Assembly: GCF_964213995.1 (NCBI RefSeq)
Contig: NW_027590119.1
Location: 248,001 to 312,000 of the forward strand
Length of the DNA stretch: 64,000 nucleotides
From: Mustelus asterias
Lineage: Eukaryota
Reading direction: 5' to 3'
A program made the translations under genes and the position numbers. The notes under the pieces were generated by a model. It saw only the letters and a program-made list of their open reading frames with translations. It ran no database searches and had not been told where the DNA came from. Positions 11,664 to 64,000 of this stretch are shown piece after piece. Within the stretch, counting starts at the first letter, position 1, and every line of letters begins with the position of its first letter.

Positions 11664-12704
11664 TCATGAGACCGGCCAGTCCAGCAGAAAGAAACCCTCT
11701 GACCCTCCCCATTGACCAACTGTGAGAATGAACAAAATGCAGTCCTGGATGTAACTGAGAGCAGAAACAATAACAGCAGAATCCAACCCCTGTGCACTTG
11801 TTGGTGCCTCAGCAGCCGTGATGAAATTCTGAACACTTTTTATACACTGAGCAGGTGGACAGTTTCTCCCCAGTGTAACTTCACTGATGTGGTTGGATAA
11901 CTGAGTGAATTCCTTCCCACACTCAGAGCAGGTGAATGGTCTCTCCCCAGTGTGAACTCGCTGGTGTCTCTGCAGGTGGGATGACTGAGTGAATCTCTTC
12001 CCGCACTGAGAGCAGGTGAACGGCCTCTCTCCAGTGTGAACTCGCTGGTGTTTCTGCTGGGTGGATAACTGACTGAAACCCTTCCCACACTGAGAGCAGG
12101 TAAATGGTCTCTCCCCAGTGTGAACTCGCTGGTGTCTCCGCAGGACGGATGACCGAGTGAATCCCTTCCCACACTGAGAGCAGGTGAATGGCCTCTCCCC
12201 AGTGTGAACTCGCTGGTGTGTCCGCAGGTCGGATGAACGAGTAAATCCCTTCCCACACTGAGAGCAGGTGAATGGCCTCTCCCCGGTGTGAATGTGCTGA
12301 TGTGTCCGCAGGTCGGATGACCGAGTGAATCTCTTCCCACAACGAGAGCAGATGAATGGCCTCTCCCCAGTGTGAACTCGCTGGTGTATCTGCAGGTTGG
12401 AAAACTGACTGAACCCCTTCCCACACCGAGAGCAGATAAACAGCCTCTCCCCAGTGTGAATTCGCTGGTGTCTCTGCAAAGTGGATAACACAGTGAATCC
12501 CTTTCCACACTGAGAGCAGGTGAACGGCCTCTCTCCGGTGTGAACTCGCTTGTGTGACTGCAAGCTGGGCAACAGAGCAAATCCCTCCCCACACTGAGAG
12601 CAGATGAATGGCCGCTCCCCAGTGTGGCTGCGCCGATGAGCATCCAGCAGAGAGGGGGCTCTGTATCTCTTTCCACAGTCTGCACATTTCCATGGTTTCT
12701 CCAT
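11664..12704 (-). CDS. Tandem C2H2 zinc-finger protein (9 complete fingers; deletion/frameshift in finger 10 runs into former 3' UTR)
   Basis: ATG MEKPWKC at 12704, CSQC...[11 protein letters not shown] repeats, frame break ~11890. Confidence 0.85.
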
Positions 12705-12949
12705 GGTGCAGGTGTCCTTGCCTCTCCCTTGGGTGGCCAATCAGTTGACGCCTTGTCCACACACAGAACGCGGGGACAGTCTCTCCCTGCTGTGAATGGT
12801 GATATTTATTCAGGCTGTGTAACTGGTGAAAGCTCTTTAGTCAGTGCTCTGGAACACTCTCACTCGGGTGTGGCAGGGTGTTGCTGCTTTTCCACTCACT
12901 GATGGCCGAAGTCTTTTCAAATCCAAGTGGAAGCTTTAATCTGAAGCTC

Positions 12950-13247
12950 AGTGGCCAACTTCCGCATTGAGACGTCACAATGGAGCGCTGCCTGAATCAG
13001 CCAATAGGAATTACTCGGCTCCGCAGTGACGTTGCGGGGTTCCATGGCGCAGGCCCGGCTCGCGGACCCGGGAGCCCCACCCATTGTTCCCCCTCCCCCT
13101 GCACCTCCTCCAGCCAAGGTTTCCAGGCAACCGGCTGGCGGCTCCGGCCAGAGCGAGAAGCCGCTCGGTGATCTCCCCCTCCCCCCTCTCTCTGCAGCGG
13201 CTGCTGCTCCAAAAAGAGATCGAGAGCGGACCGCTGGCGGCAGCCGC
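12950..13247. promoter_or_regulatory. CpG-island promoter, probably bidirectional between divergent ZNF genes
   Basis: CpG-rich; GACGTCA 12971, CCAAT 13001, GTGACGT ~13026, RFX-like GTTTCCAGGCAAC 13119; paralogous to 46175-46410 with motifs conserved. Confidence 0.7.
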
Positions 13248-13562
13248 ACTGCGCCTGCTCCGGACAGCTGGGCTCAGCAGCGCTCTCTGCGCCTGCTCCG
13301 GACAGCTGGGCTCAGCATCGCTCTCTGCGCCTGCTCCGGACAGCTCGGCTCAGCAGCGCTCTCTGCGCCTGCTCCGGACAGCTCGGCTCAGCAGCGCTCT
13401 CTGCGCCTGCTCCGGACAGCTCGGCTCAGCAGCGCTCTCTGCGCCTGCTCCGGACAGCTCGGCTCAGCAGCGCTCTCTGCGCCTGCTCCGGACAGCTCGG
13501 CTCAGCAGCGCTCTCTGCGCCTGCTCCGGACAGCTCGGCTCAGCAGCACTCTCTGCGCCTGC
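13248..13562. repeat. 38-bp GC-rich minisatellite, ~8 copies
   Basis: Unit CTGCGCCTGCTCCGGACAGCTCGGCTCAGCAGCGCTCT; CGGAC recurs at 13261, 13299, ... 13527. Confidence 0.97.
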
Positions 13563-13674
13563 GTGCTGGGCTGCCAGCTGAGGGAGTGGGGGAGGGGACT
13601 TTGCAAAATCTCTTCCCATCATTTTCTTCCAAGTCCCGCAGTTTGGTTTGAAACAGAACAGCTTCTGTTTGTAG

Positions 13675-14236
13675 CTTCACCACAGACTCAAACTTCACAC
13701 ACAGACTCAAACTTCACACACAGACTCAAACTTCACACACAGACTCCAACTTCACACACAGACTCAAACTTCACACACAGACTCAAACTTCACCACAGAC
13801 TCCAACTTCACCACAGACTCAAACTTCACACACAGACTCCAACTTCACACACAGACTCAAACTTCACACACAGACTCCAACTTCACACACAGACTCAAAC
13901 TTCACCACAGACTCCAACTTCACCACAGACTCAAACTTCACACACAGACTCAAACTTCACACACAGACTCAAACTTCACACACAGACTCCAACTTCACCA
14001 CAGACTCAAACTTCACACACAGACTCAAACTTCACACACAGACTCAAACTTCACCACAGACTCAAACTTCACCACAGACTCAAACTTCACCACAGACTCA
14101 AACTTCACCACAGACTCAAACTTCACCACAGACTCAAACTTCACCACACACTCAAACTTCACACACAGACTCAAACTTCACACACAGACTCAAACTTCAC
14201 CACAGACTCAAACTTCACACACAGACTCAAACTTCA
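13675..14236. repeat. 18/19-bp minisatellite, ~30 copies
   Basis: Units CTTCACACACAGACTCAAA and CTTCACCACAGACTCAAA interspersed. Confidence 0.97.
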
Positions 14237-14754
14237 TCCTCTGGACAACATCGGATTTCTCATTTGATGTTTTTAAGTTTCCTTTGTACTTTGATTTCTG
14301 TTCGGGCTGTTCCCCCTCCTTTTTGGGGAGCTGCCCCTTTTACTTTGTCCTGATTTAATCTGAGTTTGTTTACTTGGTTTGACCTAAAAAGAGGACAACA
14401 TCTGTGAGGAAAACACTTTCTTTCCCCCCCTGGGAAATACAGAGACAGAGAAATTCTCTGGAACTGGAATTAGAGCTAAATATACTGAGGGGGGAAATGT
14501 TTGTGAATTTGTGGAACCTGTTTTTATTGTCTGAGCTTTTTAAAGTGTAATTTATCTTGTCTATTCAAATACTGTTTCTTAATGAATGATTCAGTGATGT
14601 TAATTTTAGATTAATTTTGAAAGTAAAAATGTTTAAAAATGAAACATTGTCTTTTAGTTTATTCTATTGTGATTTGTGGGAATTTGTTTATTATAAGGTG
14701 ACCATGAGGATCGTAACAATATTGATATGTCTGGTTTTTGTATATGCTGCATAT

Positions 14755-15587: not shown

Positions 15588-16415
15588 GCTATTAGAAGGG
15601 GAGAATTTACAGACACAAATCTCAACAAACATGACGTTAGGATCTGACAGAGTCACCCAATTATTCAGGATCTGAATACCATCGGCATTTGAAACTAGAG
15701 TAGGAAATGTTTGTCTGTCCCTTCAAACTGTTTAAACATCAGTGTGACTGGAAAATCACTGAGACACAGACACTCGAGTGAGAGTATTCCAGTGAACTGA
15801 CTGTGGAAAGAGCTTTAACCAGTTACACAGCCTGGAAAAGATTGAAGGATTCACAGTGAGGAGAGAGACCATGTATGTGTTATCTGTGGGGTCAAACCTT
15901 CATCTGAACCTGGAGATGTACAAAGACACTCAGACCATGGAAATGTAGGGACTGTGGGAAGAGATTCAATTGTCCCTCGAAGCTGGAAACCCTTCGATGC
16001 AGCCACACTGTGGAATTACCGTTCACCTGCTCTGAGTTTGGAAGGGGATTTCGTGATTCATCCACCCTGAGGAATCACCAGCGACTTCACATCAGGGAGA
16101 GGCCATTCACCTGCTCTGAGTGTGGGAAGAAATTCAGCGATTCGTCTGCCCTGCTGACACACCAGCGGGTTCACAATGGGGAGAGACCATTCACCTGTTG
16201 TGTGTGTGGAAAGGGATTCACTCAGTCATCTACCCTGCAGAACCACCAGCGATTTCACACGGGTGAGGGACTGTTCCCCTGCTCAGAGCGTGGGGAGGGA
16301 TTCACTCACTCATCCCTCCCGCTGACAAACCAACGCATTCACACTGGGCTGAGGCCATTCATCTGCTCCGAGTGTGGGAAGGGATTCACTCAATTATCTA
16401 GTCTGCTGAGACACA
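15588..16415 (+). pseudogene. C2H2 zinc-finger pseudogene exon, truncated by CR1
   Basis: Acceptor TTCACAG|G at 15587/8, stops in 5' part, several fingers lacking Cys/His (CSEF, CSER), ends at LINE tail. Confidence 0.85.
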
Positions 16416-16498
16416 AACAAAGAACGAAGAACAAAGAACAGTACAACACAGGAAACAGGCCCTTCGGCCCTCCAAGCCTGTGCCGCTCCTTGGTCTAA

Positions 16499-19431
16499 CT
16501 AGACCAATCGTTTGAATCCCTCCATTCCCAGGCTGCTCTTGTGACTATCCAGGTAAGTCTTAAACGATGTCAGCGTGCCTGCCTCCACCACCCTACTTGG
16601 CAGCGCATTCCAGGCCCCCACCACCCTCTGTGTAAAAAACATCCCTCTAATATCTGAGTTATACTTCGCCCCTCTCACCTTGAGCCCGTGACCCCTCGTG
16701 ATCGTCACCTCCGACCTGGGAAAAAGCTTCCCACTGTTCACCCTATCTATCCCCTCCATAATCTTGTACACCTCTATTAGATCTCCCCTCATTCTCCGTC
16801 TTTCCAGGGAGAACAAGCCCAGTTTACCCAATCTCTCCTCATAGCTAAGACCCTCCATACCAGGCAACATCCTGGTAAACCTTCTCTGCACTCTCTCTAA
16901 CGCCTCCACGTCCTTCTGGTAGTGCGGCGACCAGAACTGGACGCAGTACTCCAAATGTGGCCGAACCAGCGTTCTATACAGCTGCATCATCAGACTCCAG
17001 CTTTTATACTCTATACTCCGTCCTATAAAGGCAAGCATACCATATGCCTTCTTCACCACCTTCTCCACCTGTGTTGCCACCTTCAAGGATTTGTGGACTT
17101 GCACACTTAGGTCCCTCTGTGTTTCTATACTCCTGATGACTCTGCCATTTATTGTATAACTCCTCCCTACATTATTTCTTCCAAAATGCATCACTTCGCA
17201 TTTATCCGGATTAAACTCCATCTGCCACCTCTCCGCCCAATTTTCCAGCCTATCTATATCTTGCTGTATTGCCCGACAATGCTCTTCGCTATCCGCAAGT
17301 CCAGCCATCTTCGTGTCATCCGCAAACTTGCTGATTACACCAGTTACACCTTCTTCCAAATCATTTATATATATCACAAATAGCAGAGGTCCCAGTACAG
17401 AGCCCTGCGGAACACCACTGGTCACAGACCTCCAGCCGGAAAAAGACCCTTCGACCACTACCCTCTGTCTCCTATGGCCAAGCCAGTTCTCCACCCATCT
17501 AGCCACTTCTCCTTGTATCCCATGAGCCTTAACCTTCTTAACCAACCTGCCATGTGGGACTTTGTCAAATGCCTTACTGAAATCCATATAGACGACATCC
17601 ACGGCCCTTCCTTCATCAACCGTTTTTGTCACTTCCTCAAAAAACTCCACCAAATTTGTACGGCACGACCTCCCTCTTACAAAACCATGCTGTCTGTCAC
17701 TAATGAGATTGTTCCATTCTAAATGCACATACATCCTGTCTCTAAGAATCCTCTCCAACAACTTCCCTACCACGGACGTCAAGCTCACCGGCCTATAATT
17801 TCCTGGGTTATCCCTGCTACCCTTCTTAAACAATGGGACCACATTCGCTATCCTCCAATCCTCAGGGACCTCACCCGTGTCCAAAGAAGCGACAAAGATT
17901 TCCGTCAGAGGCCCAGCAATTTCACCTCTCGTCTCCCTGAGCAGTCGAGGATAGATGCCATCAGGCCCTGGGGCTTTGTCAGTTTTAATGTTCCCTAAAA
18001 AACCTAACACTTCCTCTCTTGTAATGGAGATTTTCTCTAACGGGTCAACACCTCCCTCCGAGACACTCCCGGTTAACACGCCCCTCTCCTTCGTGAATAC
18101 CGATGCAAAGTATTCATTTAGGATCTCCCCTATTCCCTTGGGTTCTAAGCATAATTCCCCTCCTTTGTCCCTGAGAGGTCCAATTTTCTCCCTGACAACT
18201 CTTTTGTTCCTAACGTATGAATAGAATGCCTTAGGATTCTCCTTAATCCTGCCTGCCAAGAACATCTTGTGACCTCTTTTTGCCCTTCTAACTCCCCGTT
18301 TGAGATCTTTCCTACTCTCTCTGTATTCCTCCAGAGCTCCATCTGTTTTCAATTGCCTGGACTTAACGTACGCCTCCCTTTTCATTTTAATCAGATCCTC
18401 AATTTCCCTGGTTATCCACGGCTCTCGAATCCTACCTTTCCTATCTTTCCTTTTTACAGGCACATGCCTATCCTGCAGCCTTATCAATAGTTCCTTAAAA
18501 GACTCCCACATGCCAGACGCGGACTTACCCTCGAACATCCTCTCCCAATCAACATCCACCAATTCCTGCCTAATCCGGCTATAGTCAGCCTTCCCCCAAT
18601 TTAGCACCCTGCCCATAGGACAGCACTCATCCTTGTCCATGACTATCCTAAAGTTAACAGAGTTGTGGTCACTATTTGCCACATGTTCCCCTACCGAAAC
18701 TTTGACGACCTGACCGGGCTCATTTCCCAGAACTAGGTCCAGTATAGCCCCCTCTCTAGTCGGGCTATCTACATACTGTTCCAAAGAACCTTCCAGTACG
18801 CATTTTACAAATTCCTCCCCATCCGGTCCCCCAGCTCTCAGCACTTTCCAGTCTGTGCCAGGGAAATTAAAGTCCCCCACTACAACAACCCTATGTTTTC
18901 TGCACCTATCCAGAATCTCCTGACATATCCTCTCCTCCACTTCCCGTGGGCTGTTGGGTGGTCTGTAGTACACCCCCAGCATAGTGATGCACCCTTCCTG
19001 TTTCTGAGTTCCACCCACAGCGACTCAGTACATGACCCCTCTAAGTTGTCTACCCTCTGCACCGCGGTAATATGCTCCTTAACTAATATCGCTACTCCCC
19101 CACCTTTTTTAGCCCCTCCTCTGTCTCGCCTAAAACACTTATACCCCAGAATATTCAGCTGCCAGTCCTGTCCTTCTTTTAACCAAGTTTCCGTCACCGC
19201 AACCACATCCAAATTCCGCACAAGCATTAAGGCCCTAAGTTCGTCTGTTTTACCCGTTACACTCCTCGCATTGAAGCAGATGCACTCCAGACCTCCAGGC
19301 CCAGTCAGGTCCTCCTCCTCCAGAGTGCTCGTCTTCTTAGCTAGCCTTGCCCTGGCCCCCAGCTCGACCCCAGCCTCAGTATTTACTGACCTCCTGTTTT
19401 GTTCCCCACCCCCCTGCCACACTAGTTTAAA
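16499..19431 (-). pseudogene. CR1 ORF2 (APE endonuclease + RT) with one 1-nt frameshift at ~18989
   Basis: [32 protein letters not shown]; break between NRKGA and ITMLGVYYRPP. Confidence 0.92.
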
Positions 19432-20450
19432 TCCTGCCGAAACACTCTAGCAAAACTCCCAGCCAGGATATTTGCTCCCTTCCAGTTAAGGTGTAACCCA
19501 TCCTTTCTGTACAGTTGCCATCCTGACTTGAAGATTTCCCAGTTATCTATGAATTTAAAACCCTCCCTCTTGCACCAGTCCTTTAGCCACGCGTTCAACT
19601 GTAGAATCTCCCTGTTCCGAGCCTCACTTGCACTAGGCACCGGGAGCAGTCCAGATATTGCTACCCTGGAGGTCTTACTTTTTAGCCTAGCACCCAACTC
19701 CCTGAATTTCTCTCGTATGACCCCCCTGCTCTTCCTACCTACATCATTTCCCCCAATGTGTACAATCACATCCGTTTGACTACCTTCCTTTTTAAATATG
19801 CTTCCTACCCTCTCGGAGACATCCAGTACCCCGGCACCAGGGAGGCAGACTACCATCCTGGATTCTCGTTCAGTCCCACAGAAGCGCCTGTCCGTGCCTC
19901 TAACCATTGCGTCCCCCACAACTATCGCTCTCCTAAACCCCTTCTTTCCCTTCCGGACCCCTGAGCCTGTCTCCGTGGAGGCGATCTGGTCCTCGTGGCT
20001 TACCCCTGGAGGGTCATCCCCCTCCACAGAATCCAAAACAAGATACCTATTTTGGAGGGGGACAACCACAGGGGATCCCTCCACAGACTGCTCACTCCCT
20101 TCCCTTCTCCCATCTGTTGCCGATTCCTTTCTTTTATGGGAGACTGCCACTGGGGTACTTTCTGGCACATCACCCTTCTGACTATTACCCCTCCTAACTG
20201 TGACCCACGTGTCTTCCTTCCGAGACCCTGGTGTCACTACCTGACTATAACTTTTATCTATTACTCTCTCATTTTCCCTAACTAAACTGAGTTCATCGAG
20301 CCTCAGCTCCAGCTCCCTTACACGATCCTTCAGGAGATGCAGTTCCACACATGTGGCACAGATATGGACTTCCGGGAGGCAAGTAGTCTCCAGGAACTCC
20401 CACATCTCACACCGAATGCAGTATACTGGCCTCCCACTCATACCAGCCAT
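19422..20450 (-). CDS. CR1 ORF1p (CxxC-CxxC/leucine zipper + SGNH esterase-like domain)
   Basis: CIRC..CATC, LKDRVRELE zipper, GDAMVR, GGND and DGLHLN SGNH blocks; open frame. Confidence 0.92.
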   Translation of the reverse strand: MAGMSGRPVYCIRCEMWEFLETTCLPEVHICATCVELHLLKDRVRELELRLDELSLVRENERVIDKSYSQVVTPGSRKEDTWVTVRRGNSQKGDVPESTPVAVSHKRKESATDGRREGSEQSVEGSPVVVPLQNRYLVLDSVEGDDPPGVSHEDQIASTETGSGVRKGKKGFRRAIVVGDAMVRGTDRRFCGTERESRMVVCLPGAGVLDVSERVGSIFKKEGSQTDVIVHIGGNDVGRKSRGVIREKFRELGARLKSKTSRVAISGLLPVPSASEARNREILQLNAWLKDWCKREGFKFIDNWEIFKSGWQLYRKDGLHLNWKGANILAGSFARVFRQDLN

Positions 20451-21404
20451 GTCCTTTTTAGTTTTGTGGATAAAACAAAAAGGGGGTGTAACCGAAGAAA
20501 AACAAACAAACAACCTTCCTCGCTGAAGCCCTGTGAGCCAAAGCCCTTTTAGCTCTCACTCTGTCCCCTGCTCACTCCGCTGCCCGCTAACGACGCTGCC
20601 CGCTCAAAGGTGCGGCCTACTTTTAAACCCTCCAAAACCTTCCCAGGCTGCTGCTGGGCCTATTTCCTGTTTAGAAAAAAAACCTCCGATTTTTTTCACT
20701 AATTTAACTGAAAAAATAATTAAATAAATTAGTGCACACACAAGCTCCCTTACCCTCAGCCTGCTCCTGTGGAACAATGAGACAGTCATTCTGTCTCTCT
20801 CTCGGTTTAACTCTCTTTCCTTCGAACTCAATGTCGGTATATTTCTTTAGGTAGATCTTTCCCCGAATTAAGGTGAAAAATGAAGCAAATAATTTGACGC
20901 CTGTCGAATACACAAGTACTGAGTGCCCAGTGCAAGAGGATAATTAATAGATACCGTTTTAAGTACACCGGGAAAATGTAATCACCCAACTCAGAATTGA
21001 GATGCGGTTCGACTGGGAATACATTGATTTCAGTCAGTCAATATTATTAACCCAGCAACTTCAACATGTGACAACTCTGAGTCTGCCTTTGATATTTGAT
21101 CACTTTTGAAAGGTGTGGTCTGTCACAGTTAACTGATCTGGAGCATTTAAAATACAGATTGATGACCTTGTTCTCCTGAGAGATCTGCGGGTTTGTGTGA
21201 ATGGGATCGGGGAATGATTGGACTTGATCTGATAGTAATATGAGTAAAAATATCTCAAATTTACCAACAGTGACAATTATTGACCTCAGTGAGGGAAAAC
21301 ACTCAGGTGGGGCTGTATTGTCACGTTCACTATGGGTAACATTTCTCTGATTTTTGATCCCATGTGTTGTCCTGACAGTGAACCATTGATTATCGACCTG
21401 TGCC

Positions 21405-21443
21405 AGTTTTTGTATGAGGCCCGCGGGAGCCTCATTCACTGTG
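21405..21443 (-). promoter_or_regulatory. V(D)J recombination signal sequence, 23-bp spacer
   Basis: Minus strand CACAGTG (21443-21437) + 23 nt + ACAAAAACT (21413-21405) directly after the YYCALR codons. Confidence 0.93.
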
Positions 21444-21753
21444 GGTCTGAGTGCACAGTAATACACGGCGTTGTCTGCCATCTTCAAATCTTTCATGGAC
21501 AAGTGAAAAGTGCTTTGTTTAAGGTTGAGATTCTCATTGAAGTGTTCAAAGCCGGGAGCCGTATCGGTAAACCCATAACTAGCGGCTCTGAGCAGATACT
21601 GAGGAGCTCGGTGTGGATACTGGCGATACCAGAACAGGTAATGTTGTGTAGCTGAACTCGATGCAAAGTAACTGCAGGGTATTGCTGAATCTTCACCCTC
21701 TGCTGCTTCACAACTGGTTCTGACTGGGACACTGAGTCACCGTTACTCATCTC
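21444..21753 (-). pseudogene. T-cell receptor alpha/delta-type V segment exon (1-nt frameshift in FR1)
   Basis: Reconstructed GDSVSQSEPVV/AAEGEDSAIPCSYF...YLFWYRQYPHRAPQYLL...STFHLSMKDLKMADNAVYYCALR; frameshift ~21708. Confidence 0.9.
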
Positions 21754-36766: not shown

Positions 36767-38072
36767 GGTTTTAGAAGGGGATGATTTGCAGTCAGGAAAC
36801 TCAAACCAAACATCAAATCCAGATCTGACTGAGTCGCCCAACTTATCGTTACCTGAATACCACTGAACCTTGAGCATGGAAGGAAAAAGCACCATTCACA
36901 ATGGGGCAAAACTGTACACGTGTTCTGTGTGTGGACAAGGATTCAGACAATCATCTGGCCTGTCAAGACACAAGTGCAGTCACACTGAGGAGAAACCGTG
37001 GAAATGTGGGGAAGGATTCAGAGACCTGTCTGAGCTGGAAATTCACCAATACAGTAACACTGGGGAGAGGCTGTTCACCTGCTCTGAGTGTGGGAGAGGA
37101 TTCACTCAGTCATCCACCCTGCTGACACACCAGCGAGTTCACACTGGAGAGAGGCCATTTATCTGCTCCGAGTGTGGAAAGGGATTCACTCAATCATCTA
37201 ACCTGCTGACACACCAGCGGGTTCACACTGGAGAGAGGCCATTCACCTGCTCTGAATGTGGGATGCGATTCACTCAGTCATTCAACCTGCTGAGACACCA
37301 GCGGATTCACAAGGGAGAGAGGCCATTCACCTGCTCCGAGTGTGGGAAGGGATTCACTCAGTCATCTACACTGCAGACACACCAGCGAGTTCACACAGAG
37401 GAAAGACCATTTAAATGTCCAGAATGTGGCAAGTGCTATAAAAGTTTAAAGGAAGTGATGTTCCATCAACGTGTTCACACTGAGGAGAGACCATTTAAAT
37501 GCCCAGACTGCGAGAAGTGTTATAGAGGTTCCAGAGAACTAATGTTCCATCAACGTGTTCACACTGATGAGAGACCGTTCAGGTGCTCTCACTGCGGGAC
37601 TGGGTTCAGGTGGTCATCTCAACTCACTGAACACCAGTGAATTCACACTGGGGAGCGGCCGTTCACTTGCACTGACTGTGGGAAGGGATTCACTCGGACA
37701 TCACACCTCATGGCACATCAGCAAGTTCACACCGATGAGAGACCGTTTAAATGTCCAGACTGCGGGAAGTGCTGTAAAAGTTCCAGCAATCTAGTGTCCC
37801 ATCAACGTGTTCACAGTGAGGAGAGACCTTTTAAATGTCCAGACTGCGGGAAATGCTATAAAAGCTGCAGTGATCTGATGTCTCATCAACGTGGTCACAC
37901 TGATGAGAGACCGTTCAAGTGCACTCACTGCGGGACTGGGTTCAGGCGACCATCCCAACTCACTGTCCACCAGCGAATTCACACTGGGGAGAGGCCGTTC
38001 ACCTGCTCCAAATGTGGAAAGGGATTCACTCAGAAATACAACCTGTTGAGCCATCAGCGAGTTGACAAGTGA
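36767..38072 (+). pseudogene. C2H2 zinc-finger exon with two in-frame TGA stops (36864, 37638); residual ORF from ATG 36876
   Basis: Acceptor TTTCACAG|G at 36766/7; ORFs 36870-37640 and 37710-38072 share one frame; ~13 fingers. Confidence 0.85.
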
Positions 38073-42735: not shown

Positions 42736-43761
42736 CTGTATTTATATATCCAAATGTGCTATGTTAACAAAATGGACAGTTACTAACCGAAATATAAAGC
42801 ATCATGTGATTTAGCTGACTTGACCATATTCCTATAGTTATTCAGTCATTAAAGACACAGTCATGGAGCATTAAACTTGCCTCGCAGGGCCCCTTGTGTC
42901 AACACACAGGCAGCTGCTTTGTGAGACTGCGAGCAGCACAGACAAGTCAGAGATAAGAGTGTCCTGAGAAGAGAGATTCATTTTGAAGGCTCAGGGACGG
43001 TTGATAAGATGTAGGAATTCTAGATTCTAATGAACATTCTTTCTCTCTCAATCCCCAAAAGCTGTGAATCTCCATCCCACACACTCTCCCTCCATTCTCA
43101 CTCTGCTGTATCTAATATTCACCCTCCCAATTCTCCTGAAGGTGCTGATTGAGGCTGATTGACAGATCCATGCTCACTGCTTCCTGTCCACCACACACAA
43201 ATCATAAGAAACAGGAGCTGCAGTTGGCCATTCAGCCCATCGAACTGCCTCAACCATTCATTGAGAATTGGCTGATCTACCGCAGCATCATTTCCCACGC
43301 TATCCCCCAGATAGAGAGAGAATAGAGCCAATGTTTCGAGTCTGGAGAGAGGAAAGAATGTTCCATAGAAACTAGAATTATGTGTTCTGAATTTCTATCC
43401 TGCACTGATACTGATGATCTCTGTAAACTTGTTTTACAGGATACTGAAAGAGGAATCACAGGCCGAAATCTCAAACGTCACATCTCGATCTGACAGAGTC
43501 ACATTCCTTGGGACCTGAATATCATCGGCCTTTGAATCAAGGAGAAATGGTTGTCCGGTCTGATGACTTGAAAAGATTTCAAACATCAGTGTGACTGGAA
43601 AAGAGCCAACACGCTGCCACACTGGAGTGAGTGTGTTCCAGTGCACTGAGCTTGAACCAGTTACACAGCCTGAATAAATATCACACCATTCACAGCAGGG
43701 GGAGACTGTTCTGTGTGTGGACGAGTCTTCAACTGAAGAGAGAGGCAAGGACACCTGCACC

Positions 43762-44712
43762 ATGGAGAAACCATGGAAATGTGGGGACTGTGGGAAGAGA
43801 TACAAATACCCATCTGAGCTGGAAGCTCATTGGCGCAGCCACACTGGGGAGAGACCATTTACTTGCTCTCAGTGTGGGAAGGGATTCAGTCAACCATCCC
43901 ACCTGCAGACACACCAGCGAATTCACACTGGGGAGGGGCCCTTCACCTGCTGTCAGTGTGGGAAGGGATTCACTCAGTTATCCAGCCTGCAGAGACACCA
44001 GCGAGTTCATACTGGGGAGAGACCGTTCACCTGCTCTCAGTGTGAGAAGGGATTCACTCGGTTATCCAACCTGCAGAGACACCAGCGAGTTCACACTGGG
44101 GAGAGGCCATTCACCTGCCCTCAGTGTGGGAAGGGATTCACTGATTTATCCACCCTGCAGACACACCAGCGAGTTCACACTGGGGAGAGGCCGTTCACCT
44201 GCTGTCAGTGTGGGAAGGGATTCACTCGGTTATCCACCCTGCGGATACACCAGCGAGTTCACACTGGAGAGAGACCATTCACCTGCTCTCAGTGTGGGAA
44301 AGGATTCATTGATTTATCCACCCTGCGGAGACACCAGCGAGTTCACACTGGGGAGAGGCCGTTCACCTGCTGTCAGTGTGGGGAGGGATTCACTCGGTTA
44401 TCCACCCTGCGGATACACCAGCGAGTTCACACTGGGGAGAGACCGTTCACCTGCTCTCAGTGTGGGAAAGGATTCATTGATTTATCCGTCCTGCGGAGAC
44501 ACCAGCGAGTTCACACTGGGGAGAGGCCATTCAACTGCTCTCAGTGTGGGAAGGGGTTCAGTCAATTATCTGACCTGCAGCGACACCAGCGCATTCACAC
44601 TGGGGAGAGGCCATTCACCTGCTCCCAGTGTGGGAAGGGGTTCAGTCAGTTATCCAGCCTGCGGAGACACCAGCGCATTCACACTGGGGAGAGGTCATTC
44701 ACCTGCTCTTAG
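43762..44712 (+). CDS. Tandem C2H2 zinc-finger protein (11 fingers; premature TAG removes 2 more fingers that run to 44856)
   Basis: MEKPWKC start, acceptor at 43439/40, TAG in place of CAG at 44710 with intact fingers beyond. Confidence 0.87.
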
Positions 44713-48187: not shown

Positions 48188-49460
48188 GATAGATTTGCAG
48201 AAGGTGAGGATTTACAGGCAGAAATTTCAAATCAAACAACACATCAAGACCTGACAGAGTTATTCATTTGATCAGGACCTGAATATCATTGGCCTTTGAA
48301 TCTAAAAGGAGAAATCTTTTTCTGTTCTGTCTGCTTCAGAATTATTTTTTTAACATAAATGTAACTGAAAAATCACTGAGACACAGATACACCCGAGTGA
48401 GTGTGTTCCAGTGTACTGTGTGGGAAGAGATTTAACCAGTTACACAGCCTGAAAATACATCGCAGCATTTACAGCGGGGAGAGACTGTACCCGTGTTCTG
48501 TGTGAGATTTAACTCATTATTTAACCTGGAGAGTCACAAGGACACCCGCACCAGGGGGAAACTGTGTAAATGTGGGGACTGTGGGAGGCGATTCAGGATC
48601 CCATCACGGCTGGAATCTCATCGACACATTCACACTGGGGAGCGGCCATTCACCTGCTCTGTGTGCGGGAAGGGATTCACTCAGTTATCCAGCCTGCAGA
48701 GTCACAATCTCACTCACACCAATGAGGGATCCTTTAAATGCTCTGACTGTAGGATTGGCTTCAAAACCTCTGGAGAACCAGTGTCCCACCAGGTGTCACA
48801 CTGAGGAGAGACCGTTCAGCTGCTCTCACTGCACAAAGAGGTTTAAAAGCTCATCCAATCTGCAGAGACACCAACGAGTTCACACTGGGGAGAGACCATT
48901 CACCTGTTCTGACTGTGGGAAGGGATTCACTCAGTTCTCCCACCTGCTGAGTCATAATCTCACTCACACCAATGAGAGACCCTTTAAATGTTCTGACTGT
49001 GGGAGCAGATTCAAAAGCTCTGGAGAACTGGTGTCCCACCAGCCAGTTCACACTGGGGAGAGACCATTCACCTGCTCTGTGTGTGGAAAGGGATTCACTC
49101 AGTCATCCAGCCTGCTCAGACACAATCTCGCTCACACCAATCTGAGGCCTTTCAAATGCTCTGACTGTGGAAGTGGCTTCAAAAGCTCTGGAGAGCTGAT
49201 GTCCCACCAGCGCATTCACACTGAGGAGAGACCGTTCAGCTGCTCTCACTGCTCAAAGAGATTTAGAATATCTTCAGCACTGCTGAAACACCAGTGAGTT
49301 CACAGTGGGGAGCTGCTCTCAGTGTGGGAAGGGATTCACTGAGTCATCCAACCCATGGGTACTTCAGTGAGTTCACACTGGGCAGAGGCTGGTCACCTGC
49401 TCTGACTGTGATTCACTCAGTCAGCAAACTTGGTGAAACACCAGTGAGTTCACAAGTGAT
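48188..49460 (+). pseudogene. C2H2 zinc-finger pseudogene (paralog of 85-1611)
   Basis: [17 protein letters not shown] finger type; frameshift ~48795, TGA at 49295; shares downstream sequence with 2401-2480. Confidence 0.87.
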
Positions 49461-55425: not shown

Positions 55426-56892
55426 AGCTAACAAGTCCTTGATTAAAATAAGATACAAGATCCTTCATTCCTCTTCATTATAAGTTAATCTTTTTTAAGC
55501 TAACTTCCAAAGCCTGATTTATAGGCAACATCTCGTCTTTGTTGATTTAAAATCCTCAACACGTTACCACCTGCAAAATGTTTGTTCTTTATCTGGGGTT
55601 GAGATGACAACATGATAAAATCCTCACAGTTCTTCCAAATTCCTCCAGGCCATGCTTAAAATTTCCACGTTTCACTGGTTCCCATAAATCCTCAATCAAA
55701 AACTAAAATAGACACATGAGTTTCCAGGTGATTTAAAAACAAATGAACTGTCTGCTGAAAGGGTTAACTTTTCTACAGAACCTAAAGGGGTCGGGAGTGA
55801 GCAGAAAAAACTTGGCCCACAATTACATCACTTCACATATGATGGGGGTTTTTCTCAGAGGCTCAGTATTGAGCTGAACCCAGTTAATACAAAGATTTGC
55901 AAAAGACAGTATACTGGTTAAAGACATTATTTATTGACCAACACGCACTGGGAGAAAGGCAGCTGGGAGTCCAACTCCTTTCTAAAGTTACAATACATTG
56001 GCCGTGTAGTTATACTATTTTGAAAGTTCATTTCACCCACCCACTCTGTCATCCCAACTGGATGCTCCAATCATGTTCATGCACAATATTTACCTTGGCC
56101 AATAACATCCTATCTTCTGGCAGAATGGGAATTCATTGGTCTGTCGAATCTGACAGTTCATGCCCACTGTTACTTTGCAACTTTCACTTACGTCGGTCTA
56201 TAGGGTTCAAAGGTTGCTTTCTAACTGACTCTCAGCAACTTCTATTACATAGGTTATAGGGTTCAAACGTTCCTTTCCACTGTCTGCTGAGCCATCCCTT
56301 ATCAGTAAAAAATGAATAATTCTATTCATTCTAGTTTCTGGGAAGCGTTTACTTTTATAACTCATACTGAACTCATTGTTCCACAGGAGCAGGCTGAGGG
56401 TAAGGGAGCTTGTTTGTGCACTAATTTATTTATTTATTTTTCAGTTAAATTTGTGAAAAAAATCGGAGGTTTTTTTCAAAACAGGAAATAGGCCCAGCAG
56501 CAGCCTGGGAAGGTTTTGGAGGGTTTAAAAGTGCTTACCTTGGAGGTTTCAGCCTCATTGTTCCACAGGAGCAGGCTGAGGGTAAGGGAGCTTGTTTGTG
56601 CACTAATTTATTTATTTATTTTTCAGTTAAATTTGTGAAAAAAATCGGAGGTTTTTTTCAAAACAGGAAATAGGCCCAGCAGCAGCCTGGGAAGGTTTTG
56701 GAGGGTTTAAAAGTAGGCCGCACCTTTGAGCGGGCAGCGTCGTTAGCGGGCAGTGGAGTGAGCAGGGGACAGAGTGAGAGCTGAAGGGCTTTGGCTCAAA
56801 ACGGGCTTTGGCGAGAACAGGCAGAGGCGAGAGGAGGTTATTTTTTCTTTTTCAGAAAGTTTGTTCCTGTATTTCCCCAGAGTAAAAAAAAT

Positions 56893-57834
56893 ATGCCAGG
56901 CAAGATGTTGGAATGCTCCTCTTGCAGGATGTGGGAGATCAGGGAGACCTCCGGTATCCCTGACGACAGCACCTGCAAAAGATGTAGTCAGCTGCAGCTG
57001 CTAGCAAAGCGTGTTAGGGAACTGGAGCAGGAGCTTGATGACCTCCATCTAATTCGAGAGAATGAGACGTATATAGACAATAGATATAGGGAGATAGTTA
57101 CACCTAAACAGCAGAGCACAGGAAATTGGGTTACTGTAAGGAGAGGAAATGGCAGTGTGAAAGGACAGGCAGAGCAGGGTTCCCCTGTGGACATACCCCT
57201 CCACAACAGGTATACTGAATTGGATACTGTTGTGGCAGATGCTTTACCTGGGACAAGCTGCGACAGCCGGAACTCTGATACTGAGTCTGGTGCTACAGCG
57301 CAAAAGGGTGGGATGAAGAAGAGGAGAGCAGTAGTGATAGGGGACTCGATGGTCAGAGGTACAGACCGGAGGTTCTGTGGTCGGGACAGAGACTCCCGCA
57401 TGGTTTGTTGCCTCCCAGGTGCCAAGGTCAGCGATGTCTCTGATCGCGTGCACAGCGTTCTAAAGAGGGAAGGTGATCAGCCAGATGTCCTGGTACATGT
57501 CAGTACCAATGACGTGGGAAGGAAGAGTGAGGAAGTCCTAAAGAGTGAGTACAAAGAGCTTGGAAGGAAGTTAAAAAGCAGGACCCCGAGGGTAGTAATC
57601 TCAGGATTGCTACCTGAGCCACATGCCAGTGAGGGCAGGAGTAGGATGCTTGGGTGGATAAACACGTGGCTGAGGAACTGGTGCAGGGGGCAGGGTTTCC
57701 AATTCTTGGATCATTGGGACCTCTTCTGGGGTAGGTGGGACCTGTACAAGAGAGACGGGTTACACCTAAACTACAAGGGGACCAATATACTTGCAGGGAG
57801 ATTTGCTAGTGTTATTGGGGAGCGTTTAAACTAG
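56893..57834 (+). CDS. CR1 ORF1p (CxxC-CxxC/zipper + SGNH esterase-like)
   Basis: CSSC..CKRC, GDSMVR, STND, DGLHLN; open frame. Confidence 0.92.
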   Translation: MPGKMLECSSCRMWEIRETSGIPDDSTCKRCSQLQLLAKRVRELEQELDDLHLIRENETYIDNRYREIVTPKQQSTGNWVTVRRGNGSVKGQAEQGSPVDIPLHNRYTELDTVVADALPGTSCDSRNSDTESGATAQKGGMKKRRAVVIGDSMVRGTDRRFCGRDRDSRMVCCLPGAKVSDVSDRVHSVLKREGDQPDVLVHVSTNDVGRKSEEVLKSEYKELGRKLKSRTPRVVISGLLPEPHASEGRSRMLGWINTWLRNWCRGQGFQFLDHWDLFWGRWDLYKRDGLHLNYKGTNILAGRFASVIGERLN

Positions 57835-60763
57835 ATTTGCAGGGGGGTGGGAACCAGAGTGCCAGAGCAGATAGTGGAGCAGGGGTAAAAAGACAGGTTA
57901 GTTCAAGCAAAATCACAAATGGAAGGGTAGAGTGTGGTGGAAATAATTTTTTGAGGTGTGTCTATTTCAATGCCAGGAGTATTGTGGGGAAGGCAGATGA
58001 GCTGAAGGCGTGGATAGACACATGGAAATATGACATTATAGCCATTAGTGAAACTTGGCTACAGGAGGGGCAGGACTGGCAGCTCAATGTTCCAGGGTTC
58101 CAATGTTTCAGGCGGGATAGAGGCAGAGGGATAAAAGGTGGGGGGGGGGGGTGGCATTGTTGGTCAGGGGAAATGTTACAGCGGTACTCAGACAGGATAG
58201 ATTAGGGAGCTTGTCTACAGAGGCCCTATGGGTGGAGCTGAGAAACAAGAAAGGTATGACCACATTAATGGGCTTGTATTATAGACCACCCAATAGTCAG
58301 CGAGAATTGGAGGAGCAAATCAGCGGAGAGATAGCTGACAACTGCAAGAAACACAAAGTTGTGATCGTAGGGGATTTTAATTTTCCACATATAGATTGGG
58401 ACTCGCATACTGTTAAAGGTTTAGACGGGGTAGAGTTTGTAAAATGTGTTCAGGAGAATTTTCTACATCAGTATATAGAGGTGCCATCTAGAGAGGATGC
58501 GATATTGGATCTCCTATTGGGAAATGAGTTAGGGCAGGTGATGGATGTGAGTGTGAGGGAACACTTTGGATCCAGTGATCATAATGCCATTAGTTTCAAC
58601 CTGATCGTGGCTAAGGATAGATCTGGTCCTCGGGTTGAAGTTCTGAACTGGAAAAAGGCCAAATTTGATGAAATGAGAAGGGATCTGGGAAGTGTGGATT
58701 GGCACAGGCTGTTCTCTGGTAAGGATGTAAATGGAAAGTGGGAGGCCTTCAAAGGAGAAATTTTGAGAGTGCAGAGTTTGTATGTTCCTGTCAGGATTAA
58801 AGGCAAAGTAAATCGGAATAAGGAACCTTGGTTCTCGAGGGAGATTGTAACACTGATTAAGAGGAAGAGAGAGTTGTATGAAATGTACAGGCAGCAAGGA
58901 ACACATCAGATGCTCGAGGAGTCTAAAAAGTGCAAGAAGCTACTTAAGAGGGATATCAGGAGGGCTAAAAGAAGACATGAGGTTGCTTTGGCAGACAGAG
59001 TGAAGGAAAATCCAAAGAGCTTCTATAGGTATGTTAGGAGCAAAAGGATAGTGAGGGATTAAATTGGTCCTCTTGAAGACCAGAGTGGTACACTGTGTAT
59101 GGAACCAAAAGAGATGGGGGAGATACTAAATGGTTTTTTTGCATCCGTATTTACTGAGGAAACGGGCATGGAGTCTACGGAAATAGGGCAAACTGGTAGG
59201 GAGGCCATGGAACCTTTACAGATTAAAGGGGAGGAGGTGCTCGCTGTCTTGAGGCAAATCAGAGTGGATAAATCCCCAGGACCGGACAGGGTATTCCCAC
59301 GGACCTTGAGGGAAGCTAGTGTTGAACTTGCAGGGACCCTGGCAGACATATTTAAAATGTCAGTATTCACGGGGAAGGTGCCGGATGATTGGAGGGTGGC
59401 TCATGTTGTTCCGTTGTTTAAAAAAGGTTCCAAAAGAAATCCGGGAAATTATCGGCCAGTAAGTTTGACGTCGGTGGTGGGCAAGTTATTGGAAGGTGTG
59501 ATAAGGGATAGGATCTACAAATATTTGGATAGACAGGGACCTATTAGGGAGAGTCAACATGGCTTTGTGCGTGGTAGGTCATGTTTGACCAATCTATTAG
59601 AGTTTTTCGAGGAGGTTACCAGGAAAGTGGATGAAGGGAAGGCGGTGGATGTTGTCTACCTGGATTTCAGCAAGGCCTTTGACAAGGTCCCTCATGGGAG
59701 GTTAGTTAGGAAGGTTCAGTCGCTAGGTATACATGGGGAGGTAGTAAATTGGATAAGACACTGGCTCAATGGAAGAAGCCAGAGAGTGGTTGTGGAGGAT
59801 TGCTTCTCTGAGTGGAGGCCTGTGACTAGTGGTGTGCCGCAGGGATCGGTGTTGGGTCCATTGTTGTTTGTCATCTATATCAATGATCTGGATGATAATG
59901 TGGTAAATTGGATCAGCAAGTTTGCTGATGATACAAAGATTGGAGGTGTAGTGGACAGTGAGGAAGGTTTTCAAAGCTTGCAGAGGGATTTGGACCAACT
60001 AGAAAAATGGGCTGAAAAATGGCAAATGGAATTTAACGCAGACAAGTGTGAGATATTGCACTTTGGAAGGACAAACCAAAGAAGAACGTACTCGGTAAAT
60101 GGTAGGACTCTGAAGAGTGCAGTTGAACAGAGGGATCTGGGAATACAGGTACAGAATTCCCTAAAAGTGACGTCACAGGTGGATAGGGTCGTAAAGAGTG
60201 CCTTTGGTACATTGGCCTTTATAAATCGGAGTATCGAGTATAAAAGTTGGAGTGTTATGGTAAGGTTATATAAGGCATTGGTGAGGCCGAATTTGGAGTA
60301 TTGTGTACAGTTTTGGTCACCTAGTTACAGGAAGGATGTAAATAAGATTGAAAGAGTGCAGAGAAGGTTCACAAGGATGTTGCCGGGACTTGAGAAGCTG
60401 AGTTACAGAGAGAGATTGAATAGGTTGGGACTTTATTCCCTGGAGCGTAGAAGATTGAGGGGAGATTTGATAGAGGTGTATAAGATTTTGATGGGTATAG
60501 ATAGAGTGAATTCAAGCAGGCTTTTTCCGCTGAGGCTAGGGGAGAAAAAAACCAGAGGGCATGGGCATGGGTTAAGGGTGAAAGGAGAAAAGTTTAAAGG
60601 GAATATTGGGGGGGGGGGGGCTTCTTCACGCAGAGAGTGGTGGGAGTGTGGAATGAGCTGCCGGATAAATGGTAAACTTTTAACATTTAAGAAAAACTTG
60701 GACGGATTCATGGATGAGAGGGGTGTGGAGGGATATGGTCCAAGTGCAGGTCAGTGGGACTAG
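57825..60763 (+). pseudogene. CR1 ORF2 (APE + RT); breaks at G-runs ~58145 and ~60615 and a TAA at 59060
   Basis: [33 protein letters not shown]. Confidence 0.92.
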
Positions 60764-63124: not shown

Positions 63125-63799
63125 TCACTCGTGAACTTGATGGTGTCTCAACAGTTGGGCTGAAACTCTGAATCCCTTCCCACACTGAGAGCAGGTGAAT
63201 GATTTCTCCCCAGTGTGAACTCGCTGGTGTGTCTGCAGGCTGGATAACTGAGTGAATCCCTTCCCACATTGAGAGCAGGTGAATGGTCTCTCCCCAGTCT
63301 GAACTCGCTGGTGTCTCTGCAGGTGGGATAACCAAGTGAATCCCTCCCCATACTGAGAGCAGGTGAACGGCCTCTTCCCAGTGTGAACTCGCTGGTGTGA
63401 CTGCAGGCTGGATGACTGAGTGAATCCCTTCCCACACTGAGAGCAGGTGAATGGCCTCTCCCCAGTGTGATCCCGCTTGTGTGCCCGCAGGTTGGATGAA
63501 CAAGCGAATCCCTTCCCACACTGAGAGCAGCTGAAGGGCCTCTCCCCAGTGTGAACTCGCTGGTGCCTCCGCAGGGTGAATAAATGACTGAATCCCTCCC
63601 CACACTGAGAACACGTGAACGGTCTCTCCCCAGTGTGAACTTGCTGGTGTCTCTGCAGGCTGGATGACTGAGTGAATCCCTCCCCACACTGAGAGCAGAT
63701 GAATGGTCTCTCCCCAGTGTGGCTGCGTCGATGAGCTTCCAGCTCTGATGGGTAACTGTATCTCTTCCCACAGTCCCCACATTTCCATGGTTTCTCCAT
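63125..63799 (-). CDS. Tandem C2H2 zinc-finger protein (8 fingers, one degenerate), open frame
   Basis: MEKPWKC start to HQVHE stop; finger 6 has CSQY/HQRVQ; upstream exon part runs off the window. Confidence 0.88.
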   Translation of the reverse strand: MEKPWKCGDCGKRYSYPSELEAHRRSHTGERPFICSQCGEGFTQSSSLQRHQQVHTGERPFTCSQCGEGFSHLFTLRRHQRVHTGERPFSCSQCGKGFACSSNLRAHKRDHTGERPFTCSQCGKGFTQSSSLQSHQRVHTGKRPFTCSQYGEGFTWLSHLQRHQRVQTGERPFTCSQCGKGFTQLSSLQTHQRVHTGEKSFTCSQCGKGFRVSAQLLRHHQVHE

Positions 63800-64000
63800 G
63801 GTGCGGGTGTCCTTGCCGCTCTCTTGGGTGGACAATCAGTTGAAGCCTCGAACACACTCACAACACGAGTACAGTCTCTCCCTGCTGTGAATGATGTGAT
63901 ATTTATTCAGGCTGTGTAACTGGTTGAAACTCTTTAGTCCGTGCGCTGGAAGACTCTCACTCGAGTGTGGCAGTGTGTTGGTACTTTTCCAGTCATACTG

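Follow-up and report, generated by a model that had tools for sequence, protein, structure and literature searches.

The 64,000-nucleotide (nt) window analysed here, from the Mustelus asterias genome (contig NW_027590119.1, positions 248,001 to 312,000), contains two long interspersed elements (LINEs), one on the minus strand (E1) and one on the plus strand (E2). By their architecture, including a reverse transcriptase (RT), their tail and their bird homologues, both fit esterase-type CR1 LINEs. The junction between the two open reading frames (ORF1 and ORF2) of esterase-type CR1 LINEs is a conserved cassette made up of the heptamer T TTA AAC, a stop codon, 7 nt and a G-tract. From sequence comparison across lineages we propose, with a probability of roughly 0.78, that this junction is a programmed -1 frameshift site that yields an ORF1-ORF2 fusion. 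We prefer a frameshift because it is the only reading that accounts for the silent bases in slippery register.

By the proposed mechanism, some ribosomes would slip back by one base at U UUA AAC, where the stop codon follows directly and the G-tract would sit close to the entry channel. Both tRNAs, for Leu and for Asn, would move in tandem, from UUA AAC to UUU AAA, giving the product ...L-N-L-x-x-x-G-x-G.... The stop and the G-tract would supply the pause; most ribosomes would terminate at the adjacent UAG or UAA, producing a high ratio of ORF1 protein (ORF1p) to ORF2 protein (ORF2p), and a minority would read on to make an esterase-endonuclease-RT fusion of about 1,300 residues.

The junction in two divergent elements

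The features on which the comparison within the window draws are as follows.

19422..20450, minus strand: E1 ORF1, with a Cys-rich N terminus, a coiled coil predicted by eye, an SGNH/GDSL esterase and the end ...QDLN-stop
19425..19431, minus strand: E1 slippery heptamer T TTA AAC, in X XXY YYZ register with ORF1
19422..19424, minus strand: E1 ORF1 stop, directly 3' of the heptamer
19404..19414, minus strand: E1 G-tract GGGGGGTGGGG, a candidate stimulator, beginning 10 nt past the heptamer
18880..19425, minus strand: 5' part of E1 ORF2 in the -1 frame, with the linker and then the start of the apurinic/apyrimidinic endonuclease (APE)
19272-19261, minus strand: E1 NARS motif; the first in-frame Met is at 19227
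56893..57834, plus strand: E2 ORF1 of esterase type, with the end ...ERLN-stop
57825..57834, plus strand: E2 heptamer (57825-57831) and stop
57842..57851, plus strand: E2 G-tract GGGGGGTGGG; GGGGGATGGG is frequent (about half) in the family of E2
57831..60763, plus strand: E2 ORF2 in the -1 frame, encoding endonuclease and RT, in a copy split into three pieces

The E1 junction reads GAT TTA AAC TAG TGT GGC AGG GGG GTG GGG on the minus strand, with the heptamer at 19431-19425, and its -1 frame gives SVSAG-FKLVWQGGGEQ...CICFNARS; apart from the SVSAG, both are as the original prediction had described. That prediction also placed the first ORF2 Met after the NARS motif, and the Met at 19227 does lie past the NARS Asn codon at 19272. 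The two ORF1s are as divergent as had been supposed (54% identical as protein and 61% as DNA; the RT regions are 66% identical), and the linker behind the G-tract aligns poorly between E1 and E2. The shared motif is kept across this divergence, with a spacer of four free bases, TTTAAACTAG-N4-GCAGGGGGGTGGG, in place of the five that had been counted.

Both ORF1s match Pfam GDSL_2 (9e-12 and 4e-11), and ORF1 matches PDB 4c1b at 6e-37; its N terminus carries CxxC...CxxC and, by eye, a heptad-like stretch. ORF2 has the Pfam domains Exo_endo_phos and RVT_1 and also matches L1 endonuclease structures. Both window copies have breaks inside ORF2, and the frame break of E1 lies further into the endonuclease. 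Homologues occur in rays, sharks and birds.

A count of the motif in the window alone, with 4.3 matches expected at one mismatch and 6 observed, is uninformative about chance. The weight of the evidence lies on the two exact matches in the window, which both sit at an ORF1 stop, and on the comparison of lineages.

Conservation of the heptamer and stop

The source genome (3.68 Gb) contains tens of thousands of ORF1 candidates. Copies came from two queries that lack the ORF1 end and from five productive whole-protein queries; these searches also supplied 20 picks that ranked lower. To them were added 600 kb of sequence taken without any query, and 26 metagenome loci, of which 7 extend to the junction. 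ORF1 ends were placed by a profile without its last eight columns. The 175 junctions fell into 21 clusters, whose representatives are 43-88% identical (median 54%), and 19 clusters were used as lineages: 12 from this genome, 6 of bird type and 1 unassigned. Bird-type calls were made by named homologues for L093, by tree grouping for four metagenome loci and by eye for the sixth. We excluded 19 of the 26 metagenome loci, which were broken or ended short of the stop, and 2 of the 21 clusters (single copies in which an indel mislocates the stop). Frames that were not open took 3 of the 19 lineages out of the ORF1 codon test and 6 out of that for ORF2. Representatives were selected for open frames, and the linker test was therefore made on all 128 copies with the endonuclease motif in the -1 frame. 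Viral and prokaryotic collections held no relative, and two genome searches at a strict cut-off gave no matches. One ORF1 homologue with 61% identity (P0012) has the database label Pseudomonas aeruginosa and is likely to be host contamination.

Of 186 located ORF1 ends, 166 have the exact heptamer where it is expected; in 4 others it lies within 9 nt, 12 are without it there and 4 are at locus edges. Among the query-free junctions it was exact in three of four, and the fourth has G TTA AAC. The six bases TTAAAC are invariant in all 19 lineages, and the heptamer stands in X XXY YYZ register with ORF1 throughout, as T TTA AAC in 18 and as G TTA AAC in one. In a survey of ORF1 ends covering sharks, rays and birds, 42 of 61 and 95 of 120 homologues end in LN.

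This constraint reaches silent positions. ORF1 finishes with the codons Leu TTA and Asn AAC, each kept in 16 of 16 lineages with 0 parsimony steps, although these elements use TTA for only 14% of their Leu residues and AAC for 39% of their Asn residues. In the synonymous control, none of 26 conserved columns is unchanged (median 4 steps; Leu controls 3-8). The X base is held as T under eight different amino acids; among variable control columns, 2 of 418 reach 90% and none reaches 94%. In window scans the junction is the lowest of 226 windows in ORF1 (0.05; median 0.84) and holds the three lowest of 591 in ORF2 (0.09, 0.20 and 0.34; median 0.93). ORF1 is closed by TAG or TAA in 18 of 19 lineages, even though TGA would count as a silent change in either frame. 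The original prediction had proposed synonymous-site conservation as its own test; run here, that comparison puts the junction far above synonymous sites elsewhere, which leaves the prediction standing and supports both the nucleotide-level constraint and the recoding signal that it had suggested.

Elsewhere in ORF1, a CCLPG motif lies about 430 nt before the stop. All 16 of 16 lineages have TGC as the codon for its second Cys; apart from the junction, no other column of ORF1 is fully invariant.

Entry into ORF2

Of 153 copies that have the endonuclease motif, 128 carry it in the -1 frame, which is also the most frequent frame in 14 of 17 clusters. The linker that leads to it varies from 36 to 121 codons in length. 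Read in the -1 frame, it is free of stops in 121 of 128 copies; read in either of the other frames, it is so in 0 of 128. Because the linker is open in this frame only, translation of ORF2 most likely begins at the junction. The frame is open from the heptamer through the RT, over 968-1006 codons, in 7 of 19 long copies. Upstream of the heptamer, an AUG is found in 1 of 19, and in 7 lineages the -1 frame is closed within 1-3 codons, so that the F-K at the start of the frame is not encoded from an earlier start.

In one intact copy, residues 54-185 align with residues 22-150 of the L1 endonuclease, and the first Met is residue 126. Because this Met falls inside the alignment, a start at that AUG would remove the front of the enzyme, which we take to hold catalytic Asn and Glu residues.

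A start of the SART1 type, overlapping or adjoining the stop, is not conserved among the lineages, AUG being found at codon 5 in 3 of 19 and at codon 4 in 1 of 19. A conserved near-cognate start (GUG or UUG), which the original prediction had named as a possible independent entry, was rejected: 7 of 14 lineages have neither AUG nor a near-cognate codon within the first six -1-frame codons. Contigs guessed to be RNA-derived, from three runs, cross the junction without a gap, and one has a 197-nt skip with non-canonical ends; we gave these no weight.

The G-tract as a candidate stimulator

The 11th and 14th bases past the heptamer are G in 18 of 18 lineages. The Gly codons of the tract are GGG in 16 of 16 and 15 of 16 lineages, whereas 21 control Gly columns peak at 0.77; the tract is thus conserved at the nucleotide level. 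The pattern retained is approximately GGGGG-NN-GGG, and the exact GGGGGGTGGG is not general. G4Hunter scores are at least 1.2 in 16 of 18 lineages, and the tract is within the top 2.5% of its element in 17 of 18. The predicted folds include a quadruplex for 8 of 18 lineages, six of these being two-tier, and no convincing case emerged for the G-quadruplex raised in the original prediction. A bound protein or a weak quadruplex would suit the constant 10-nt distance better than a hairpin would.

Pairing of the tract with its best 7-nt partner blocks in ORF1 and ORF2 reaches 0.80-0.90; many of the pairs are G-U, and covariation is not clear. The recurrent best partner is a Pro-rich block about 650 nt upstream, which is also the second-lowest ORF1 window (0.39) and shows at most 1-2 matching changes; we treat it as a weak lead. 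Polymerase slippage in the G-run was discarded, as slippage in a run located past the ORF1 stop has no means of joining the frames.

The run itself varies in places. In the junctions of one older subfamily (L061-L084), its length differs widely among copies and masks the -1 relation in many. At L091:676-720, in a divergent element (40% ORF1 identity), G TTA AAC and a stop are followed by a G-run three bases earlier than elsewhere, and ORF2 is open in the -1 frame.

Alternative readings and points against a frameshift

Ribosomes might instead stop at the ORF1 UAG or UAA and restart nearby in the -1 frame, with or without an AUG, the 40S subunit being held by the G-tract and ORF2p being made as a separate protein. 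Restart in L1 can reportedly be independent of an AUG. Termination-reinitiation is described, in the parts of the sources covered, for L1 (10.1101/2020.06.18.158667) and SART1 (PMC3708506, PMC10275272), and it accounts for the open linker equally well. An AUG just behind the stop, at -1-frame codon 5, favours it in 3 of the 6 bird-type lineages, and 9 of 14 lineages have an AUG, at scattered positions, between the stop and the endonuclease motif, so that reinitiation is possible there at least as a second route. It leaves unexplained, however, why T TTA AAC is held in slippery register ahead of the stop, the silent X base included. Nor is a start codon kept (codons 4 and 5 each take 11 forms among the 19 lineages), and five subfamilies are without an AUG ahead of the endonuclease motif (2 of 86 copies have one). 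We consider reinitiation the main rival, though an unlikely one.

Nucleotide conservation alone does not name the level at which selection acts, and the cassette could be a DNA or RNA element unrelated to decoding, such as an internal promoter, a splice acceptor or a protein-binding site for packaging or reverse transcription. TTTAAA is presumably TATA-like, and we take GGGTGGG to resemble a GC/CACCC box. Against such an element, every lineage keeps the motif tied to the frame and the stop of ORF1; GGGTGGG forms the second G-run in some lineages only; the splice-acceptor AG of TAG is not kept, that base being A in 5 of 19; and a transcript of ORF2 alone would lose the first endonuclease motifs in the five subfamilies without an AUG. 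This explanation strikes us as very improbable. The same bases might also be frozen by protein-level constraint only, if ORF1p has to end in Leu-Asn, ORF2p needs F-K-L-x-x-x-G-x-G and the two frames overlap. Overlapping frames do suppress synonymous change, and F-K-L and G-x-G are conserved in translation; yet in seven lineages the -1 frame has no start codon between the Phe and a stop that lies 1-3 codons ahead of it, and the G-tract, although past the ORF1 stop and thus in a single frame, has fixed silent positions. By these sequence criteria the protein-level explanation is largely refuted, and we give it next to no credence.

Several observations nevertheless weigh against a programmed frameshift, beyond the AUG codons behind the stop. 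The lineages are related, so that counts across them are not independent events, and in five of the seven productive genome searches the query was a whole protein with the terminal LN in it. The X-base score (18 of 19) is barely above that of the best control column, and single two-fold columns below 0.1 occur elsewhere, 3 of 146 in ORF1 and 5 of 303 in ORF2. One single copy has a TGA stop, and lineage L091 combines G TTA AAC with a shifted G-run. The expected structural stimulators were also not found. Neither a conserved fold nor a conserved partner was detected for a 3' stem-loop or pseudoknot 5-9 nt downstream, pseudoknots not being modelled explicitly. A local hairpin, the short stem offered in the original prediction, gained no support and was rejected (z from -2.1 to +1.5 across 18 lineages; 0.35 and 0.59 for the window copies). 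No long-range partner of the G-tract in ORF1, ORF2 or the tail covaries with it, and pairing with the 3' tail beat the null in 1 of 10 elements and was rejected for this family.

Relation to known systems

On mammalian ribosomes, U_UUA_AAC ranks with the heptamers most prone to shifting, and the shift in pea enation mosaic virus is driven by a stop close by on the 3' side (both from the covered portion of a 2016 review, PMC5009743). In -1 frameshifting at U_UUA_AAC of the coronavirus infectious bronchitis virus type, which follows retroviral Gag-Pol logic, the heptamer, the register and the polymerase ORF in the -1 frame are the same as in CR1 (PMC5009743, same portion). In contrast to that type, the CR1 site is without a hairpin or pseudoknot at 5-9 nt, has an adjacent stop and a G-tract at 10 nt, and resides in a LINE. 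According to the same text, structural stimulators lie at 5-9 nt, whereas the protein-stimulated sites of arteriviruses (nsp1beta with PCBP) and cardioviruses lie at 11-14 nt and have a short conserved motif at a longer distance in place of the classical structure. The CR1 G-run begins at the 11th base and its motif is G-rich. A natural quadruplex stimulator was anticipated in that part of the review, but none was known.

Among retrotransposons, the Dictyostelium elements TRE5-A and TRE3-A, which are APE-type and lack long terminal repeats, can be likened to CR1 by description, as a -1 frameshift is stated for their ORF2 in the covered text of PMC5911963; they belong to another clade and have another ORF1. 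With L1 and SART1, as far as the sources at hand describe them, CR1 has in common a bicistronic LINE RNA and little ORF2 protein; these elements make a separate ORF2p, however, and the overlapping UAAUG of SART1 is absent from the CR1 junction.

Canonical vertebrate CR1 elements whose ORF1 has zinc-finger/leucine-zipper and esterase parts (type IVB, CR1 subgroup 7; main texts of PMC4120745 and PMC13343379) have two ORFs and a Cys-rich N terminus with an SGNH esterase, as here, and are also alike in their APE endonuclease and RT ORF2 and in a short tandem-repeat tail; the junction signal is the addition made here. Neither 'frameshift' nor 'overlap' occurs in those two main texts, 'frameshift' is absent from the part of PMC11303007 covered, and the first 300,000 characters of PMC5009743 do not mention 'CR1'. 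A CR1 frameshift between ORF1 and ORF2 was not found in the literature searched, though the 1997 papers on chicken and turtle CR1, which fall outside that coverage, may mention overlap or frameshifting.

CR1-group elements are described as the dominant retrotransposons in most vertebrates (PMC13343379, abstract), and LINE ORF2 translation has been called unclear (PMC3708506, in part). If a frameshift is used, CR1 ORF2p has been annotated from the wrong start and would carry the ORF1 esterase at its N terminus, intact CR1 copies would have been scored as lacking a start, and assays of CR1 mobility would need to include the junction. At less than 30 nt, the cassette can be tested directly in reporters and may reveal a new natural type of frameshift stimulator. 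A broader proposal, in which a -1 cassette conserved from sharks to birds would give vertebrate CR1 elements their RT as a Gag-Pol-like ORF1-ORF2 fusion, the shift being stimulated without a hairpin by a protein-binding or natural-quadruplex G-tract at a fixed 10 nt, seems to us possible but, taken as a whole, on the doubtful side.

Other features of the elements and the window

The remaining parts of the two elements are these.

20531..20782, minus strand: E1 5' leader block, 95% identical to the E2 leader block
16499..19024, minus strand: remainder of E1 ORF2, encoding the C-terminal part of the endonuclease and the RT
16415..16498, minus strand: E1 3' untranslated region (UTR), with a hairpin-like GGGCC-GAA-GGGCC motif and a short tandem tail
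56554..56800, plus strand: E2 5' leader block

The leader identity of 95% stands beside identities of 61% in ORF1 DNA and 66% in the RT region. A 60-nt leader probe found 13 of 28 copies in each of two subfamilies, 1 of 8 in a third and none in the other clusters. The shared leader may reflect a swap of leaders or promoters between CR1 lineages. Ahead of the E2 block lies an additional partial copy of the leader unit (56440-56553, plus strand), resembling a tandem monomer leader. Within the leader, GTAAGG ... CACTAAT ... T-rich ... CAG (56582-56626, plus strand; E1 is alike) resembles a very short intron of 45 nt, or splice sites used across monomers. A 17-nt leader stretch (20672-20656, minus strand) is nearly complementary to a conserved 3' UTR motif (16462-16447, minus strand); end-to-end pairing is possible, the duplex energies having been computed without a null.

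The elements lie among a cluster of C2H2 zinc-finger exons (49-1611, 11664-12740, 15908-16498, 36867-38072, 43678-44712, 48436-49297 and 63125-63835), one of which E1 directly adjoins. Upstream of E1, an ORF at 21047-21736 on the minus strand contains WYRQ...YYCAL and looks like a V segment of an immunoglobulin or T-cell receptor. On the plus strand, at 13008-14358, are two arrays of tandem repeats that contain long open frames.

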